A DNA stretch of 64,000 bases. Source: an uncultured archaeon. Its GTDB lineage: Archaea > Iainarchaeota > Iainarchaeia > Iainarchaeales > JAAZKV01. Made by a program: the position numbers and the translations under genes. Positions within the stretch are counted from its first letter, which is position 1. Each line of letters begins with the position of its first letter. The DNA lies in contig CABMEU010000004.1 in assembly GCA_902385225.1 (NCBI GenBank), positions 20,662 to 84,661 of the forward strand, given 5' to 3'. The notes under the pieces were generated by a model, which was not told the DNA's origin, searched no databases, and saw nothing but the letters and a program-made list of their open reading frames with translations. Below, piece after piece: positions 828 to 64,000 of the stretch.

Positions 828-2876
828 ATGCTTAATTCCCTTACTTTAAGAAACTGGAGAACGCACAAAGAAACCACGCTTGAGTTTGGGAAAGGAACGA
901 ATGTAATAATAGGTGTAATGGGTTCTGGAAAGAGTTCTGTTGTAAATGCAATTAGTTACTCGCTATTTGGCACTTTCCCCGCGATGAAAAACAAGAGTGT
1001 TTCATTAAAAGAAGTGATAATGAACAAGCCAAACCCCCAGAGCAGGGCGGAGACCGCAATTACATTTGAGCAGGACAAAAAGAAGTATAGGGTGGAGAGA
1101 ATAATCAAAGCTGACGGGACAAATGAAGCGAAGCTCTACGAGGAAAGCAGGCTCATAGCGGGACCAAAACAAAAAGATGTTAATGAAAAAGTTGAGATGC
1201 TTCTTGGGCTGAATTATGAATTATTCAGCAGAGCTGTGTATGCCGAGCAGAACGAAATGGATTTCTTTCTGAAATTAAGCCCCGGGGAGCGAAAAAAGAA
1301 ATTTGATGAGCTGCTTGAGCTTGAGAAATACGAAGAGGCCCGAAAAAACTCAATTACACTCCAAAACGAAATGCTAAAAGAAAACAAGCAGATAAAGGAT
1401 TATATTGAACAGCAGAAAAACGCGATAAAGAACCATGAAGAGGAAAAACTGCTTGCGCAAATCAAAAACGAGGAAAAGGAAATTATTCTGCTTGAGAAAG
1501 AAATTATTGAAACCAAAAAAGAACTTGCGCTCATTGAGAAAGAATACTCCTCACTGCTTGAGAAAGAAAAGCAAAACAAACTGCTTGAGGATTTACTTAT
1601 CAAACTTGGCTCACGCATTGATACATTAAAAGAGGATATTGCGAAAAATGAAAAGATTTCGCTAAAAGAAGTGCAGGAAGAGCTTGTGAGGAATAAGAAA
1701 GAAGCCGAGAAATTCTCGCAGGCGATGCTTGAAAAAGAAAAACTGCTCAAGGAGGCGCTTGAGGAAGTGAAAAAGCACAGCGGAGATTTAAAAGTTCTTG
1801 AGTACAAGAAAAAAGAGGTACTTGATGAGGAGAAAGGAATCTCCTCGCTCAAAGGAAAGTGCCCAACCTGCAAACAGGAATTAAATGAAGAGCACAAAAC
1901 ACACCTGACAAAAGAATACTCTGAAAGACTCGCACAAACTATTACGTGGATGGCGGATATTGAGAAGAAAAAGAAAATTGCGGAAGAGAAAGCCGCAGTG
2001 CTTGAAAAAGAAAAAGAAAAATTACGCAAAGAAAACGATGAAGTAAAAAGCAAATGCTACAAACTTGAGGCGGCGCAAAAAGAGGCGCTTTCTGTTGAAG
2101 AGAAAAAGAAACAACTTGCAAATTTTACGGGGGAAACGCCAAAAGTGAGAAAACAGCTTGCTGAACTTGGGTTTGATAAGAAAAAACTTGAGATGGTCCG
2201 CGAGGAGAATTATAAGAAAAAATCCTCTGTGAGTGTTGCTGAAACAAAAATAAAATCAAAACTGGAACTTAAGAAGAGCTATGAGGGAACAATAAGCAAA
2301 ATCGCGCAAATAAGAAAATCAATTGAAGAACAAGAAAAAGGCTGTCTGAAGAAAGAAGAAGCTGCGCAAAAACTAGGGGTGTTTGCGAACTGCTTAATCG
2401 CGGCGCAAGTAGAGCTGCGCGAATCACTCTTACAAACTATAAATAGCGCAATGACAAGCATTTGGCAGGCGGTTTATCCGTACAAGGACTTTACCGATGC
2501 GCGCCTGTGCGTTACCTCTGACGGGTATGATTTACAGGTAATGAACCGAAACGGGGAATGGGTGAGAGTTGAGGGGATACTCTCTGGCGGGGAAAGAAGC
2601 GCCGCCGCTCTTTGCATAAGAATGGCATTCGCGCTTGTGCTTACCAAAAAGTTGTCCATGCTCATACTTGATGAGCCGACACACAACCTTGATTCAAACG
2701 CCGTGCAAAAACTAAGCGAAATGCTCCGCGAAGAAATGCCAAAACTTGTTGAACAAGTATTTGTAATTACTCACGATAAGGAACTTGAGAATGCTGCAAG
2801 CAGTAACTTGTACTTACTCACAAGAAACAAGAATCTTGATGAACCAACAAAAGTTGAAGTAATGAATACTTACTGA
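828..2876 (+). CDS. rad50: Rad50-type SMC ATPase for DNA double-strand-break repair (short coiled coil)
   Basis: It has Walker A GVMGSGKSSV, a long K/E-rich coiled coil, a central zinc hook CPTC, the ABC signature LSGGERS, Walker B MLILDEPT and ITHD near the C-terminus. It ends in TGA. Confidence 0.9.
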   Translation: MLNSLTLRNWRTHKETTLEFGKGTNVIIGVMGSGKSSVVNAISYSLFGTFPAMKNKSVSLKEVIMNKPNPQSRAETAITFEQDKKKYRVERIIKADGTNEAKLYEESRLIAGPKQKDVNEKVEMLLGLNYELFSRAVYAEQNEMDFFLKLSPGERKKKFDELLELEKYEEARKNSITLQNEMLKENKQIKDYIEQQKNAIKNHEEEKLLAQIKNEEKEIILLEKEIIETKKELALIEKEYSSLLEKEKQNKLLEDLLIKLGSRIDTLKEDIAKNEKISLKEVQEELVRNKKEAEKFSQAMLEKEKLLKEALEEVKKHSGDLKVLEYKKKEVLDEEKGISSLKGKCPTCKQELNEEHKTHLTKEYSERLAQTITWMADIEKKKKIAEEKAAVLEKEKEKLRKENDEVKSKCYKLEAAQKEALSVEEKKKQLANFTGETPKVRKQLAELGFDKKKLEMVREENYKKKSSVSVAETKIKSKLELKKSYEGTISKIAQIRKSIEEQEKGCLKKEEAAQKLGVFANCLIAAQVELRESLLQTINSAMTSIWQAVYPYKDFTDARLCVTSDGYDLQVMNRNGEWVRVEGILSGGERSAAALCIRMAFALVLTKKLSMLILDEPTHNLDSNAVQKLSEMLREEMPKLVEQVFVITHDKELENAASSNLYLLTRNKNLDEPTKVEVMNTY

Positions 2877-2877
2877 A

Positions 2878-3282
2878 TCAGAATAAACCCTTCTTTATCA
2901 AATCGGGAACTAGTCTGTCACGCGTTGCGGGAATTAACGGATACTTATTCGAATCAAATTCTTTCCTTGACATCCAAACAAATCCCTTAATCTCATTGCC
3001 CGGAACAATTTTGCCTTCAATTTCCGCTAAATATGCTCTGCTTCGGTAAATAACACCCGCATCGTATGCGGATGGCGAAACATACTCGCCGAAAAACTTT
3101 GAGGAAACCACTTTGACATTAATCTCTTCACTAAGTTCCCTTTGAAGACAATCCAAATCTGATTCCCCTTCCTTTACTTTCCCGCCAGGCGTCCAATATT
3201 CTTTATACTTATCCGCGCCCTTTACCAAAAGCAGTGATTTATTCTGAATTATTATTGCGGCGATTCTAGTTACTTCTTTCAT
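2878..3282 (-). CDS. Nudix hydrolase
   Basis: The Nudix box GGKVKEGESDLDCLQRELSEEINV fits Gx5Ex7REUxEExGU. Confidence 0.85.
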   Translation of the reverse strand: MKEVTRIAAIIIQNKSLLLVKGADKYKEYWTPGGKVKEGESDLDCLQRELSEEINVKVVSSKFFGEYVSPSAYDAGVIYRSRAYLAEIEGKIVPGNEIKGFVWMSRKEFDSNKYPLIPATRDRLVPDLIKKGLF

Positions 3283-3872: not shown

Positions 3873-4577
3873 TTAAACGTGTTCTAAGCGCATTTTAGAG
3901 GAGGCTTTGCCCTGCTCCATCCTCTCCTCAAAGACGCCTGCGCTCAAATTCAAATGGTTTTTGAGCATCCAATAATCCGAGGCAATCATTGACCTTTTGC
4001 TTAGTTTCTTTAGTTCAAACCATTTCAAAAAGTCTTTTTCCTTAATCTCCGAAACATTTTTTGGTTTTACACTAACCAAAAAGAAAACAAAGCCATGCTT
4101 TGATTTAGTGCCCTCCAAAACCCTTTCGTAAATCACGCTCTTTACTCCGCAGTACTCGCACACGGCATATGCCTTCTCCGAAATTATTCTTAGTGCGGCT
4201 TCCTTAATTGACTCCTGAATTAATAGTCTTCCTGAGAGAATACTCCAAAGCCCCTTGTAGGGGCGCTCCTGCCGCTTAATTAGAAGAACTTTTTCTTCAT
4301 GAACAAGGGCGACTAATATTACCACAAGCGGGGAAATTCTCTCCGAGTCAGGAACAAAAAAAGGAATCATTTTCTCGGCTTTCTCTGAAAGCTTGTACTG
4401 CTCGTTTTCTTTCTCAAGCAATCCTTCCGCAACCATTTTCTTCAAAAAATACGCGAGCAAATTGGATTTGATTTTTGTTTTTGAGAGGATAGCGGAGAAG
4501 CGCAAGCGCTCCGCGTAAAGAAACTGCTGAAAGATTTTCTTCCTCTTTTCATCAAAATTCAGCTTCATTTTGCCCAC
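3873..4577 (-). CDS. Putative transcriptional regulator: N-terminal winged-HTH fused to a degenerate (probably non-catalytic) Nudix domain
   Basis: The N-terminus (RFSAILSKTKIKSNLLAYFLKKMVAEGLLEKENEQYKLSEKAEK) looks ArsR/MarR-like. The C-terminal half has the Nudix-fold signature SGRLLIQESIKEAALRIISEKAY, in which the REUxEE glutamates read RIISEK. The track start is GTG at 4577; an ATG at 4568 is preceded by AAGTGGG. Confidence 0.6.
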   Translation of the reverse strand: MGKMKLNFDEKRKKIFQQFLYAERLRFSAILSKTKIKSNLLAYFLKKMVAEGLLEKENEQYKLSEKAEKMIPFFVPDSERISPLVVILVALVHEEKVLLIKRQERPYKGLWSILSGRLLIQESIKEAALRIISEKAYAVCEYCGVKSVIYERVLEGTKSKHGFVFFLVSVKPKNVSEIKEKDFLKWFELKKLSKRSMIASDYWMLKNHLNLSAGVFEERMEQGKASSKMRLEHV

Positions 4578-5182: not shown

Positions 5183-5785
5183 ATGGTAAAACTGCTTACT
5201 CTTGTTCTAATTGTTGAGGGCGACAAAGTGCTGCTCGCAATGAAAAAAGAAGGGTTCGGCAAGGGAAAATGGAACGGGCTTGGCGGAAAAGTAAAACCTG
5301 AAGAAACCATTGAGCAGGCAGCGAAAAGGGAAGCACGCGAAGAGGCATGCGTGCGCATTATGGAAATGAAAAAATTGGGAATAGTACAATTCAGGTTCAG
5401 GGGAAGCAGGACCGTGCGCGAAATGCACATTTTTAAAGCAACAAAATACTCGGGAAAACCCGGGGAAACAAAAGAAATGCGGCCAAAATGGTTCAATCTA
5501 AACAAAATTCCTTTTGGCAAAATGTGGCCCGCAGACAGGAACTGGATGCGAATGTTTCTTTTAGGAAAACAATTCCGCGGCAGGGTGCTTTACGGGGAAA
5601 AGTACGGCACTGTAAAGAAACACAGCGTGATTTCAAACGAGGTTGTTGAAGCGAGAATCAGGAATCAAATAAAGATGGTTGCCACAAAGCATACACGCCC
5701 CGCGCTCAAACCTTTGACTCAACGAATTCCTTCAGCACGAGGGTGCGGTTATGCGCCTCGTCCCTTGCGGCGAAGAGGAGCATGA
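5183..5785 (+). CDS. MTH1/NUDT1-like Nudix hydrolase (oxidised purine nucleoside triphosphatase type) with a C-terminal extension
   Basis: LLTLVLIVEGDKVLLAMKKEGFGKGKWNGLGGKVKPEETIEQAAKREAREEACV and EMRPKWFNLNKIPFGKMWPADRNWMRMFLLGKQFRG track the human MTH1 sequence as I recall it ([57 protein letters not shown]). The last ~45 aa have no counterpart and overlap the convergent gene. Confidence 0.8.
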   Translation: MVKLLTLVLIVEGDKVLLAMKKEGFGKGKWNGLGGKVKPEETIEQAAKREAREEACVRIMEMKKLGIVQFRFRGSRTVREMHIFKATKYSGKPGETKEMRPKWFNLNKIPFGKMWPADRNWMRMFLLGKQFRGRVLYGEKYGTVKKHSVISNEVVEARIRNQIKMVATKHTRPALKPLTQRIPSARGCGYAPRPLRRRGA

Positions 5786-18781: not shown

Positions 18782-19213
18782 ATGATTTCACTCCAAAAGC
18801 CAGCTGATTTCAACCCGGTCTTTGAAGTGGTATCTTGTTTTGTTGAGAAAAAAGGAAAAATTATTCTGCTGCATAGACAGGACCATGCGCGCGAAGGAAA
18901 TACTTGGGGGGTGCCGGCCGGAAAACTCAAGGATAAAGAAACTTTAACCGAAGGGGTATTAAGAGAAATAAAAGAAGAAACTGGAATCACACTTAAGGAA
19001 CCTAATTTAAAGTATTTCAAAAAAATTTATGTAAAATACCCAAATTATGACTTTGTTTACCATATTTTTCAAACAAAAATCAAGGGAAAAGAAGAAATTA
19101 AACTAAATCCCGAGGAACACAAGAACTACAAGTGGATTACCCCAAAAAATGCGCTCAAAATGAATTTAATAGAAGATGAAGATGCGTGCATAAAATTGTT
19201 TTACAAAATCTAA
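18782..19213 (+). CDS. Nudix hydrolase
   Basis: Nudix box GVPAGKLKDKETLTEGVLREIKEETGI. Confidence 0.85.
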   Translation: MISLQKPADFNPVFEVVSCFVEKKGKIILLHRQDHAREGNTWGVPAGKLKDKETLTEGVLREIKEETGITLKEPNLKYFKKIYVKYPNYDFVYHIFQTKIKGKEEIKLNPEEHKNYKWITPKNALKMNLIEDEDACIKLFYKI

Positions 19214-58437: not shown

Positions 58438-59547
<1,110 letters not shown>

Positions 59548-60337: not shown

Positions 60338-60386
60338 AACTTAAAGCTAACCATACAATTTTAATCATTTCAAACCCAATATTTAT

Positions 60387-60656
60387 GGACTAGGCCGGGC
60401 CGCTAGCGGTGGCTTGTCACCATAAATCCGCTTTATGATGGGGCTGAAGTGAGGCAAGAGGTTCGTATGCTATTGTTGACACCATTTTGGTGGCGTCGAA
60501 GCTCTGTCCTTACAGGTGTTTCACTGAAACGAACCCCGCCAGGGCAGGAATGCAGCAACGGTAATTTTAATGGAAGACGCTGAAGGGAAACGGAGTGGAG
60601 TCACTAGAGTGAAATGCTAACATTAGCTAAAAATCCATTGCCTTACGCGTCCATGC
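60387..60656 (+). ncRNA. Signal recognition particle RNA (archaeal 7S RNA); ends approximate
   Basis: The 5' GGACTAGGCCGGGCCGC resembles the archaeal SRP RNA 5' end (GGGCUAGGCCGGG...). The helix-8 signature CCAGGGCAGGAATGCAGCAACGG has the GGAA tetraloop and flanking AGCA. The 3' CCTTACGCGTCC can pair with the 5' GGACTAGG and is followed by GCTTTTTG. This GC-rich island has no ORF. Confidence 0.75.
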
Positions 60657-60869: not shown

Positions 60870-61049
60870 ATGATGGTTTTTGAGAAAAAAATGTCTGTTA
60901 AGGACTTAATCGAACAAATGAGAGAAGAACTCAAGAAAGAGCAGGAAGAAGCGGGGATTATCTCAAAACCCTCAAAGAAAAAAACACTCGCAAAAAAGGC
61001 AAAAGCGAAAGCAAAGCCGAAAAAAAGCGCTAAAAAGAAAAAGAAATAA
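60870..61049 (+). CDS. Small lysine-rich protein (59 aa), hypothetical
   Basis: My own translation reads MMVFEKKMSVKDLIEQMREELKKEQEEAGIISKPSKKKTLAKKAKAKAKPKKSAKKKKK*. It is one codon below the track cutoff and has a consensus-like TATA upstream. Confidence 0.4.
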   Translation: MMVFEKKMSVKDLIEQMREELKKEQEEAGIISKPSKKKTLAKKAKAKAKPKKSAKKKKK

Positions 61050-61050
61050 G

Positions 61051-61371
61051 CTAATCCTTCTTAGAATCAGCTTTTTTCACTTCTTTTGCTAATTTATCGA
61101 GCACACTCTGAAGAGTATTTATCAAAATCCAATCCTCATTTGAAGCAAAGAACTTTTTGCCCCTAATAGAAAGAGTGCCGTGCACCTCGTGCTGAATACG
61201 CAGACCCCCCTTCTTGTACTGCTTAAGATCCAAATGCAATTTTGCATCCTCCCCCACCTTTTTAAAAAAATGGGAAAGAGCGGACTCAAACAATTTCTCA
61301 TCAACCTCGTCAAATTCTGGGAACTTAACTAACTCAACGTTCAAAAAATTATTCACCAAAAACACCTCCAA
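61051..61371 (-). CDS. HPF/RaiA-like (ribosome hibernation factor family) protein, tentative
   Basis: LHLDLKQYKKGGLRIQHEVHGTLSIRGKKFFASNEDWILINTLQSVLDKLAKEVKK parallels the bacterial HPF/YfiA core as I recall it (...v.v.l......v.i.l......A....eDmY.AID.....KLerQl.K.K). There is no ATG. GGAGGTG is followed 6 nt later by GTG at 61356, which is the likely start. Confidence 0.45.
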   Translation of the reverse strand: MEVFLVNNFLNVELVKFPEFDEVDEKLFESALSHFFKKVGEDAKLHLDLKQYKKGGLRIQHEVHGTLSIRGKKFFASNEDWILINTLQSVLDKLAKEVKKADSKKD

Positions 61372-61378
61372 AAAAACA

Positions 61379-63220
61379 ATGATGAAACTACCAGCCAGTC
61401 GGTCAAAAAAACCGCCTCAAAGCAACAAATACAGGTTCAAACGCTTTAAAAAAAGAATTGAGACAAAGCTCAGTATGGTCGGGGAAGAGATTACTCAAAA
61501 AGAAATACAAAAAGCGGAGGATTATTTGAAAAAAAACAAGCTCCCCGCCGGAGAGGTAGTCAAAAAAACTGTGGAAGAACTTAGAAAAAAGGGGATTCCA
61601 AAAGAAGCAATCCTGGCGTTAATGCTCCACAAAATTCCTGCTGAAAAAATTAACGCGAAAGAAATAAAGGAAATGTTTGGGGAAAAAACACTTGAAATAA
61701 TGCAAACCATAAACCGCATGGAAGAGATAATTCAAAAAAACTATGGAAGAATACCTGCGGAAACACTTGGTTCAATAGCTCTTTCAATTTCAAATGAATT
61801 CGAGCCAATTATAGTAAAGCTCGCAGAAACCGCAAACGAACTCGAAGCGGGAATGGATAAGGAGGAAGTAAAAATCGCGGAAGATATTTACGCGCCGATG
61901 GCAACAAAACTCGGACTTAATGATTACGCATGGAAACTGCAGGACTACTCATTCAAAGTAACAAACCCTGAAGGGTGGAGAAAAATCAAGAACCTTGTAA
62001 ATAAAGACAGAAAAGAAAGAGAAGAGCTTGTTGAAACCGTGCGAAAAGAGGTGGAGGAATTAATCAAAGGAAAGCTAACCGCGGAAGTTACAGGAAGACC
62101 AAAAAATTTTAGGGCAATATTTGAGAAACTAAAAAAAGTGCCTTTTCAGAGAATGCATGACCTTTATGGAGTAAGAATAATCTGCAACAAAGAAAAAGAG
62201 TGCTATGAGGCGCTTGGGTACATACACTCAAAATATGAAATAATTCCTGAAGCTTTTGATGATTATATTACAAAACCAAAAAGCGACGGGTACAAGAGCA
62301 TACACACCGCGGTGAAAAGAGGAAAGGACATCATTGAGGTGCAAATACGCACCTGGGAGCAGCACTTGCGCGCCCTTGGGCAAAGCTACTGGAGTTATAA
62401 AAAAATAAGAAAAGATAAGGAATTTGAAAAAGAGCTCAGCTGGGAAAGACAATTAATTGAATGGCAAAAAGAAATGGGAAAAACCCCTCTTGGGAAAAAA
62501 ATCTCCGGAAGGAAAATATTTGCATTCACCCCAAAAAATGAGGCAATAGCGCTGCCACAAGGAGCTAGTGTAATTGACTTTGCGTTTGCGGTGCACAGCG
62601 ATATTGGAAAAAGAATGGAAAAAGCAAAAGTAAACGGAAAAATTGTTCCAATCGAAACAAAACTCAATAATCTTGACCGTGTGGAGATAATCGTTTCTGA
62701 AAAACCACAGATGAAGAAAACCTGGCTTACAAATGCGGTAAGCGACAAAGCGAGGGCAAAAGTTAAGGCATTCTTTGGACTAACAAACACGCGGACAAAG
62801 AGAATAATTACAAAAATAAGCGATGTTAAAAAAATAAAAATGGCAGAGTGCTGCCATCCTCTTCCAGGGGAAGATGTTGTGGGAGTAAAAACAACCAAGC
62901 GAAAAATTGTAATGCACAAAAAAGACTGCCCGAATATCCAAAACATGAGCAAAAGCAAATTAATGGAAATTGATTTTGAGAGAGAAAAAGGAAAAACCCT
63001 GATAAGAGTCGCGGTAATAGACAGACCGGGAATCTTAGGAGAAATGCTTGGGGAAATAAGGCACTCTGGAGCCACATTAGTTAACACAAGCTTCAAAATG
63101 AAGCACTCCGGATACGCGGAAGCGATATTTGAGATAGAAATTGGAAGCGCTGCAAAGCTTGATAGATTAATCGAGAAGATAGAGAACATACCCTCTGTGC
63201 AAAGCGCTCAAAGAGTGTAA
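61379..63220 (+). CDS. Long RelA/SpoT homologue: degenerate HD (hydrolase) region, (p)ppGpp synthetase domain, TGS, CC/zinc-finger and ACT domains
   Basis: - Synthetase motifs: IYAPMATKLGL, GRPKNFRAIFEKL, HDLYGVRIIC, DDYITKPKSDGYKSIHT, IEVQIRTWEQH.
- TGS: IFAFTPKNEAIALPQGASVIDFAFAVHSDIG...AKVNGKIVP.
- CC/zinc-finger: CCHPLPGEDVVGV. ACT: IRVAVIDRPGILGEMLGEI.
- The HD region reads LMLHKIPAE where LLHDvvED is expected, and the upstream metal-binding His residues are missing.
- I place the start at the ATG at 61379; the track ORF from 61214 overlaps the divergent gene. Confidence 0.85.
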   Translation: MMKLPASRSKKPPQSNKYRFKRFKKRIETKLSMVGEEITQKEIQKAEDYLKKNKLPAGEVVKKTVEELRKKGIPKEAILALMLHKIPAEKINAKEIKEMFGEKTLEIMQTINRMEEIIQKNYGRIPAETLGSIALSISNEFEPIIVKLAETANELEAGMDKEEVKIAEDIYAPMATKLGLNDYAWKLQDYSFKVTNPEGWRKIKNLVNKDRKEREELVETVRKEVEELIKGKLTAEVTGRPKNFRAIFEKLKKVPFQRMHDLYGVRIICNKEKECYEALGYIHSKYEIIPEAFDDYITKPKSDGYKSIHTAVKRGKDIIEVQIRTWEQHLRALGQSYWSYKKIRKDKEFEKELSWERQLIEWQKEMGKTPLGKKISGRKIFAFTPKNEAIALPQGASVIDFAFAVHSDIGKRMEKAKVNGKIVPIETKLNNLDRVEIIVSEKPQMKKTWLTNAVSDKARAKVKAFFGLTNTRTKRIITKISDVKKIKMAECCHPLPGEDVVGVKTTKRKIVMHKKDCPNIQNMSKSKLMEIDFEREKGKTLIRVAVIDRPGILGEMLGEIRHSGATLVNTSFKMKHSGYAEAIFEIEIGSAAKLDRLIEKIENIPSVQSAQRV

Positions 63221-63293
63221 AAAGAAGAAATTCGAGAAAAAAAACAAGCTATTTAAACACTTCTAAGACAAAAATTCTTTAGGAGTGTGGTAA

Positions 63294-64000
63294 AATGAAA
63301 CTTATTCTAAAGGGAATTATTTTTGCAATGATAATGCTGCTTGCTGTGGGGGCTTTCGCAGCGGTGCCTGATGTGAGCCAATTTACTTACACCCCAAGCC
63401 CAGCTGTGCCAGGAAGCACTATAATTGTCACACTCCAGCTTGAGAATAAGAACGAATCGACTTTGAAAGGAGTGAGCGTACAGCTGGAAAATGCATACCC
63501 TTTTACTGTAAAACCCACTGACACACAGCCAAACCCAATCAGTGTTGGAGATCTGGCAGGACACGGAAAAGCGCAGGTGCAATTCACAGTTTATGTTGAT
63601 CCTTCGGCAGAAAACAAAACTTATACCCTGCCTGTCACTCTAAAAACAACAGAGGACACAACAGGAACAAAAACAAGTTATGAAATCAATATAAGCGGAA
63701 AAGAACCATTAGTAAAAGTTGTGAGTGTTGTTGAGAATAACCTCCTTCCAGGGGAAGAAAAAACAATTGTACTTGAAGTGCAGAACGTTGGGACAAGCCC
63801 GGCATATGATGTTTTAGTTGAAATGCAGGAAGACAGAACTGTTACCGCAACAGGAAGCGTTGTAGAAAGAGATATTGTTCCTTTAGGAGCTGCAACGGCA
63901 TACCTCCCCCAAATAAATCCGGGCGAGAAACAAACTGCAGAGCTAAAGGTGAGTGTTAGCAGCACAGCAACTGTAAAAACATACACACAGCCAATCAAAG
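63294..64000 (+). CDS. Secreted CARDB/S-layer-like repeat protein (COG1361-like); N-terminal part, runs off the window
   Basis: My own translation from the ATG at 63294 (GGAGTGTGGT upstream) reads MKLILKGIIFAMIMLLAVGAFAAVPDVSQFTYTPSPAVPGSTIIVTLQLENKNESTLKGVSVQLEN... A second module follows: LLPGEEKTIVLEVQNVGTSPAYDVLVEMQ. It is absent from the ORF track because it is open-ended. Confidence 0.7.

Follow-up and report, generated by a model that had tools for sequence, protein, structure and literature searches.

Near the end of a 64-kb stretch of contig CABMEU010000004.1 from an uncultured archaeon (hereafter the window, meaning all 64,000 nt analyzed), two genes face away from each other across a short intergenic region. 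On the plus strand, a long RelA/SpoT homolog (RSH) of 581 residues spans 61475..63220, and on the minus strand, a standalone archaeal HPF/RaiA-like protein of 101 residues is encoded at 61051..61356, starting from GTG 61356. An earlier reading of the letters alone (the original prediction) had described the two as a bacterial-type stringent-response pair, with a 613-residue RSH of complete long architecture whose start lay 7–22 nt from that of a divergent 100-residue HPF/YfiA-like gene. We find that the divergent pairing is conserved across the archaeal lineage to which the window belongs, that the RSH keeps its synthetase site and has lost its hydrolase site, and that its partner belongs to an archaeal rather than a bacterial HPF lineage.

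We placed the RSH start at 61475 because the N-terminal extension given by the alternative ATG at 61379 is not shared by homologs and because a TATA-like element lies 26 nt upstream of ATG 61475. The conserved start corresponds to Met33 of the 613-residue open reading frame (ORF); upstream of this Met, the frame is closed in many orthologous loci. The start at 61379 was rejected, as its additional 32 residues occur in no homolog, and with the start at Met33 the gap between the two genes is 118 nt (61357..61474) instead of 7–22 nt. A deposited protein, "Region found in RelA / SpoT proteins [uncultured archaeon]" (P0001), encoded on a 102.6-kb contig, is 100% identical to the 581-residue product. 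Approximately 100 further homologs (45%–87% identity) bear the names archaeon, Ca. Diapherotrites, or Ca. Iainarchaeum.

Profile searches matched the RelA_SpoT, TGS, and ACT domains. The order of pseudo-hydrolase, synthetase, TGS, zinc-finger, and ACT domains in the original prediction stands, with the corrections that the protein is shorter and that its helical (AH) domain is deleted. The pseudo-hydrolase (degenerate HD) domain (61475..62065, plus strand, as are all domains below) is all-helical, with the catalytic His, Asp, Glu-Asp, and Asn replaced. Pfam HD_4 (PF13328) matches the RSH at 36.8 bits (cut-off 27.2; 4e-9), and an HD hidden Markov model (HMM) matches only the C-terminal two-thirds of the pseudo-HD domain. 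The (p)ppGpp synthetase domain (62066..62404), with the motifs GRPKNF, DLYGVRII, EAFDDYITKPKSDGYKSIHT, and EVQIRT, matches Pfam RelA_SpoT (PF04607) at 98.8 bits (cut-off 27; 3e-28). It is followed by a TGS domain (62513..62695; Pfam TGS, 1e-16) and by a remnant of the AH domain (62696..62836), which measures ~47 residues instead of ~130–140 and consists of one short helix and then a disordered linker. The zinc-finger, or ribosome-intersubunit (RIS), domain (62837..62968; AECCHPLPGED...H...C) aligns to RelA residues 608–644, and PF28438 (RelA_RIS) is precomputed for the identical entry P0001. The chain ends in an ACT/RRM domain (62990..63217; Pfam ACT_4, 1.3e-11), which has a beta-alpha-beta-beta-alpha-beta order in the AlphaFold2 (AF2) model of the RSH (predicted local distance difference test, pLDDT, 77.5). 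The NCBIfam model TIGR00691 (spoT_relA) scored 364.2 bits, under its curated cut-off of 499.2, a shortfall that fits the deleted AH domain and the degenerate HD domain. Among solved structures, the nearest in sequence is the monofunctional E. coli RelA bound to the ribosome (5iqr, E 7.7e-74), and the top Foldseek matches are RelA, SpoT, and Rel.

Motifs were compared across 111 full-length RSH homologs and a relative with an intact HD domain (P0119). As first proposed, the synthetase motifs of the RSH are intact (GRPK, D(L/I)YG(V/I)RII, FDDYI.KPK..GYKSIHT, and E.QIRT), and the residues R, K, D, Y, H, E, Q, and R within them (GRxK, D..R, Y..H, E.Q.R) are invariant in all 111 homologs. The loss of the hydrolase signature was likewise borne out: the HP motif is absent, LHKIP-AE stands in place of LHDvlEDT, and KLAETANEL in place of KLADRLHNM. 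Where bifunctional Rel has RFKD, the RSH has EAFDDY; the DD is found in 96 of the 111 homologs, and the Glu is one position off ExDD. Sajish et al. are said to have described an acidic ExDD in monofunctional RelA-type enzymes and RxKD in bifunctional Rel. The AAHW motif that follows the catalytic loop is altered by a two-residue deletion, with YW for HW in 91 of the 111 homologs. In the regulatory half, TGS H374 is invariant and is the counterpart of H432 in E. coli RelA, a residue in contact with the CCA end of tRNA (the position was mapped by alignment to RelA), and the zinc-finger residues C459, C460, H481, and C485 are also invariant. Overall, judged by these residues, the protein looks like a synthetase-only (RelA-like) long RSH. 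No separate small alarmone hydrolase or HD-type hydrolase was found within the window. The original prediction had suggested that alarmone degradation might fall to Nudix hydrolases; three Nudix-box-like ORFs are present at 2878–3282 (minus strand), 5183–5785 (plus), and 18782–19213 (plus), each separated from the RSH by more than 42 kb, and Nudix genes lie less than 5 kb from the RSH in the related loci L084 and L086.

We scanned one genome per GTDB species, which gave 36 iainarchaeal, 1 Woesearchaeota, and 41 bacterial RSH loci. The bacterial loci were picked by two peptide patterns and are thus a biased sample. Three lines of evidence lead us to conclude that the AH domain is deleted across the whole archaeal RSH clade, including a Woesearchaeota member with intact HD motifs: the alignment of the RSH to E. 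coli RelA skips chain residues 506–608, the TGS-to-CC spacing is 58–70 residues in 35 out of 35 archaeal loci measured versus 129–149 residues in 40 bacterial loci measured, and the AF2 model shows a single short helix, then disorder, between the TGS domain and the zinc finger. Because the Woesearchaeota RSH (L042, 5809–7719) has already lost the AH domain while its hydrolase motifs are intact (LLHDILEDT, KLADRVDNM), AH deletion seems to be older than hydrolase decay. In a neighbor-joining tree, the AH-less archaeal RSHs form a single clade; 85 of 100 bootstraps support its split from the sampled bacteria, and 100 of 100 support the iainarchaeal core. The RSH is most likely of bacterial ancestry, anciently acquired and vertically inherited; the tree, with its biased bacterial sample, does not point to a donor lineage.

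Compared with E. coli RelA (5IQR, 5KPS), the RSH has the same order of pseudo-HD, synthetase, TGS, zinc-finger/RIS, and ACT domains. Both are hydrolase-dead, and the TGS His and the zinc finger are conserved in both; the acidic xFDD in place of RFKD resembles RelA, with the Glu shifted by one position. The differences are a sequence identity of only ~25%–30%, a length of 581 versus 744 residues, the almost complete deletion of the AH domain, and a shorter pseudo-HD domain; unlike E. coli RelA, the RSH would also need to act on an archaeal ribosome. Its loss of hydrolase function was probably independent of the proteobacterial RelA/SpoT duplication, since related DPANN RSHs keep intact or partly intact HD motifs.

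An RSH in such an archaeon is less surprising than the original prediction suggested. Rinke et al., in 2013, reportedly found SpoT-like genes in Diapherotrites single-cell genomes. The relevant passages of a later survey report RelA/SpoT in 69% of Diapherotrites, 41.7% of Woesearchaeota, 21.3% of Pacearchaeota, and 19% of Nanoarchaeota, with the DPANN genes inferred to have been acquired from Bacteria (Li et al. 2021, mSystems, PMC8407392). These passages concern the same gene family in the same phylum as the RSH of the window. They deal with presence or absence and with the inferred bacterial origin, and hydrolase decay, AH deletion, and an HPF-like neighbor do not appear in them.

The small gene opposite the RSH is real, and its product has an HPF fold. 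The ORF spans 61051–61371 (minus strand) and has 13 close homologs of ~101 residues. These open with MNNF.NV, which matches GTG 61356, the likely start, and gives 101 residues rather than the 100 first proposed; the NCBI version has 97 residues from 61344. Bacterial HPF profiles stay below threshold: the S30AE/HPF family PF02482 scored 16.1 bits (cut-off 23.7), and TIGR00741 scored 18.9 bits (cut-off 40.9; E 0.0016). Such sub-threshold matches occur in 11 out of 14 family members (best E 0.003), and it is the C-terminal half of the small protein that aligns, weakly, to the HPF profiles. The AF2 model has a pLDDT of 89, and ranks 1–31 of its Foldseek matches in the Protein Data Bank (PDB) are all HPF, YfiA, pY, or PSRP1 (TM score 0.50–0.69; best E 3.5e-5, with 1e-2 reached at rank 35). 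When PDB sequences were searched by profile, HPF (E 0.27) was outranked by a bromodomain from yeast (E 0.0017); we regard this as a chance match, as the fold search and hhalign favor HPF.

An exhaustive profile search with the small protein returned 155 representatives, and 58 of the 150 listed were longer than 160 residues. Most of these longer matches are ~375-residue proteins with the matching domain at the C terminus. Nine of the 10 longer proteins scanned contain CBS domains (Pfam), with four in the ~375-residue ones; the tenth (P0164, 949 residues) is an unrelated repeat-containing protein. Aligned by hhalign, the small-protein family and the C-terminal domains of the 4xCBS-HPF proteins match with 99.8% probability (E 1e-29, 30% identity over 99 columns). 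We equated these fusions with HibA/AHA by their match to the published architecture. HibA (Pyrococcus/Thermococcus; Nat Commun 2026, PMC13324472) and AHA (Haloferax; 2026 preprint, PMC12934967) are 4xCBS-HPF hibernation factors, and cryo-electron microscopy (cryo-EM) and in vitro assays show that their C-terminal HPF domain binds the 30S decoding region and mRNA/tRNA channel of archaeal ribosomes and that translation is inhibited (PMC13324472, PMC12934967). Both reports list standalone HPF/RaiA-like proteins; according to one, 8% of archaea have them ("mostly DPANN and Nitrososphaerales"), and the other gives a total of 926 such proteins from 814 species.

From end to end, the small protein is homologous to the HPF domain at the C terminus of HibA/AHA, and it shares with the 4xCBS-HPF C-domains the motifs P.LDE(V/I)D, K.Y.K.G.R..HEVH, and W.LL..Q..L..LE. 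Unlike HibA and AHA, it has no CBS domains and so lacks the N-terminal 4xCBS portion (two Bateman modules), which binds AMP and contacts the large subunit. It is a 101-residue protein with its own Shine-Dalgarno sequence. Bacterial short HPF, RaiA (YfiA), and plastid PSRP1 are matched in fold with only 13%–20% identity, and the archaeal CBS-fused domains are nearer than any bacterial HPF. By homology, we therefore assign the small protein to the archaeal standalone HPF/RaiA-like class, within the HPF lineage of HibA/AHA; it is neither a bacterial HPF nor HibA proper. No second HPF-like gene was found in the window. The idea of a horizontally acquired, synthetase-only module thus holds for the RSH, with its bacterial ancestry and missing hydrolase, and fails for the small gene, which is of archaeal lineage.

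The 118-nt intergenic region contains putative signals for both genes. A TATA-like element, TTTAAAAAAAGAATTG, lies at 61445–61460, and its distance of 26 nt from the RSH ATG suggests that the RSH mRNA is probably leaderless. For the small gene, a GGAGGTG Shine-Dalgarno sequence is located at 61369–61363 (minus strand), with a 6-nt spacer to GTG 61356. The TATA-like element, in the same place, and the Shine-Dalgarno sequence recur in many orthologous spacers, and we predict that the spacer elements act as a promoter.

The pairing is conserved. In 35 out of 36 iainarchaeal species genomes, an HMM of the small protein detects an ORF that lies upstream of the RSH and is read in the opposite direction; the remaining locus is cut by a contig end. 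The spacer measures 39–194 nt in 30 loci, with a median of 104 nt over all 35, including five with inserted genes. The inserted gene encodes an adenosylhomocysteinase (AdoHcyase) in L007, L008, and L030, and a triosephosphate isomerase (TIM), co-oriented with the HPF-like gene, in the deep-branching L040 and L041. More distant relatives show two further arrangements: L084 has an HPF-only gene (3893–4231, minus strand) together with TIM, and L085 has a 377-residue 4xCBS-HPF (HibA-type) gene (2085–3218, minus strand) together with TIM and CorA. Since L085 has the fusion and L084 the HPF-only gene at the same position, we suggest that the CBS module was lost in place, with the RSH already nearby. 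The fusion that L085 still carries there also tells against a bacterial-type pair acquired together, and we therefore conclude that the RSH landed beside a resident archaeal hibernation gene. None of the 41 bacterial loci has an HPF-like gene near the RSH.

The surrounding DNA is archaeal, in agreement with the original prediction. A full-length archaeal signal recognition particle (SRP) RNA (RF01857, 129 bits) lies at 60383–60656 (plus strand), ~400 nt from the RSH/HPF-like pair, and RadA, RPA, NrdD, SHMT, and ThyX are encoded within the 17 kb before the pair. GC content is uniform over the window (0.38–0.43). The closest species genome by RSH is Candidatus Forterrea sp. (86% RSH identity), a member of the phylum Ca. 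Iainarchaeota in the kingdom Nanobdellati. The window is from an iainarchaeote (DPANN), nearest to Candidatus Forterrea, and the RSH sits in a genuine archaeal genome on a contig free of chimerism, not on a mis-assembled fragment.

Several other genes adjoin the pair. A conserved Lys-rich protein of 59 residues (60870..61049, plus strand) is encoded convergently with the HPF-like gene, with 1 nt between the two stop codons. The MVFEKKMSVKDLIEQMR.EL motif at its N terminus is near-invariant in 28 of the loci searched (24 out of 36 at the species level), and its K/A/P-rich tail is variable. It had no match in Pfam, NCBIfam, or the PDB, or by structure. This protein is possibly a third component of the block and could be a nucleic-acid- or ribosome-binding partner. 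At 58438–59541 (minus strand), a 367-residue tRNA-guanine transglycosylase (TGT) consists of the catalytic TGT domain alone (426 bits) and adjoins the block in 20 out of 22 loci; archaeosine TGTs usually bear additional C-terminal domains. On the 3' side of the RSH, an ORF at ~63290–64000 (plus strand) runs beyond the end of the window and opens with MKLILKGIIFAMIMLLAVGAFA; its N terminus resembles a signal peptide. The ORF corresponds to the 391–398-residue CARDB-like proteins 3' of the RSH in L001, L003, and L004. In the deep-branching loci, a KaiC-like ATPase (PF06745) of ~245 residues is instead directly 3' of the RSH and co-oriented with it (L040, 7721–8467; L041, 7771–8511; L084, 6938–7678; L085, 6915–7652; L086, 6898–7635); in the clade of the window, a secreted CARDB-like protein displaces it. 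One related contig, L012 (CAYTIW010000030.1), is labeled "uncultured Planctomycetales bacterium" and carries an archaeal RSH/HPF-like pair with 60% identity to the RSH of the window; it is probably a mis-binned archaeal contig.

The RSH family and the standalone HPF-like family have each already been published for such archaea. In the literature searched, the pairing, the AH deletion, the graded HD decay, and the in-situ series from CBS-HPF to HPF-only appear to be unreported. Neither PMC13324472 nor PMC12934967 links HPF-like genes to RelA or ppGpp, and our searches returned nothing further on DPANN or Iainarchaeota with alarmones or the stringent response.

We favor, with moderate confidence, the explanation that a bacterial RSH was acquired early in this lineage, by an ancestor, and is now a RelA-like (p)ppGpp synthetase fixed divergent to a resident HPF gene of the HibA/AHA family. 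After acquisition of the bacterial long RSH by the lineage ancestor, the hydrolase residues and the helical domain would have been lost, and the resident HPF gene would have shed its AMP-sensing CBS module in this lineage. In the cell, the RSH is predicted to be an active and ribosome-dependent enzyme: during amino-acid starvation, uncharged tRNA in the A site would engage the TGS, zinc-finger, and ACT domains, and pppGpp or ppGpp would be made from ATP and GTP or GDP. The alarmone would then reduce GTP-dependent growth processes. The HPF-like protein, by analogy with the C-domains of HibA and AHA, would plug the mRNA/tRNA channel in small subunits that stand idle and thereby preserve them. 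With HPF in the A and P sites, the RSH would be kept off ribosomes, which could dampen alarmone synthesis by an enzyme that lacks a hydrolase. The compact shared promoter region suggests that the two genes may be co-regulated.

A number of points weigh against this explanation. A synthetase without a hydrolase might be toxic unless tightly controlled, and RelA-type positioning on the ribosome might suffer from the AH deletion. No (p)ppGpp was detected in tests of Haloferax and Sulfolobus, both of which lack RSH genes (PMC8646023). The remaining points concern gene order. RadA and TGT are each kept in 20 out of 22 loci with a full upstream flank and the Lys-rich ORF in 16 out of 22, so that the retention of RadA and TGT nearly equals that of the HPF-like gene (22 out of 22). 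Because the whole block is generally syntenic, adjacency alone is weak evidence for coupling and may reflect inherited gene order rather than selection. DPANN RSHs outside the lineage (Woesearchaeota L042; L086) have no HPF-like neighbor, and three distant standalone HPF-like representatives examined do not lie beside an RSH.

These patterns are what would be expected if both genes are functional but independent, their adjacency being the inherited order of a slowly rearranging block of RadA, TGT, SRP RNA, the Lys-rich ORF, the HPF-like gene, and the RSH. We consider this possible, if on balance unlikely. The pair also tolerates the insertion of unrelated genes (AdoHcyase in L007, L008, and L030; TIM in L040, L041, and L084), which fits independence as well. 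However, the HPF-type gene is the sole neighbor retained in every informative locus, down to 34%–36% RSH identity and even as a CBS fusion. Constant divergent orientation, short spacers, and shared promoter-like elements are stronger hints of coupling than adjacency itself. A link between an RSH and hibernation is also biologically sensible, as (p)ppGpp drives HPF/RMF expression in bacteria. Functional coupling of the RSH and the HPF-like gene is a plausible hypothesis.

We are doubtful of a stronger form of the acquired-RSH explanation, in which Iainarchaeota run a genuine (p)ppGpp stringent response wired to ribosome hibernation. Here, once the bacterial RSH had inserted beside the resident HibA gene, its starvation signal would have made the CBS module of HibA dispensable. 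The loss of the module in situ would run from CBS-HPF as in L085, through HPF-only genes with TIM between the pair as in L084, L040, and L041, to the direct divergent pair of the core. The two genes would form a co-regulated sensor-effector unit, and occupancy of the A site by HPF would be the off-switch for a synthetase without a hydrolase.

It is improbable, in our view, that the RSH no longer signals by (p)ppGpp, either as a silent ribosome-associated protein or as an enzyme with another product, such as (p)ppApp or pyrophosphorylated tRNA as made by some toxic small alarmone synthetases. The absence of a hydrolase domain in the protein and of a separate hydrolase in the window, the altered AAHW motif, and the deleted AH domain could be read in this way. 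So could the fact that no archaeon has yet been found to contain (p)ppGpp (PMC8646023, PMC12934967), a point made for such alarmones in the AHA preprint as well (PMC12934967). However, all residues of the long-RSH (p)ppGpp synthetase site are invariant over 111 sequences, and bona fide RelA and Rel are its nearest structural matches. To our knowledge, moreover, the known (p)ppApp-making and tRNA-modifying RSHs are small single-domain enzymes, not long ones.

It is very improbable that the RSH stems from bacterial contamination or a chimeric assembly and that the small ORF arose by chance, even though long RSHs are typical of Bacteria and L012 bears a Planctomycetales label: the RSH/HPF-like/TGT/RadA block is syntenic in 36 independent metagenome-assembled genomes from many studies, on contigs of up to 985 kb, the adjacent SRP RNA is archaeal and GC content is uniform, the small ORF has its 13 close homologs, 155 distant representatives, and HPF fold matches, and L012 itself carries the archaeal block.

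An ancestrally acquired RSH fixed beside a resident hibernation gene would matter because this locus provides, in one lineage, a concrete, conserved candidate system for archaeal use of (p)ppGpp. The candidate unites an intact RelA-like synthetase, which keeps its tRNA- and ribosome-sensing domains, with a member of a newly discovered archaeal HPF-type family. If active, it would show that a bacterial ribosome-dependent sensor can be refitted to a eukaryote-like archaeal ribosome without the helical domain, and that alarmone signaling and hibernation can be linked in Archaea. The locus also supplies small, expressible proteins (581 and 101 residues) for biochemistry and cryo-EM. What appears to be new is the divergent pairing of two known gene families, which offers a testable lead to an archaeal stringent response.

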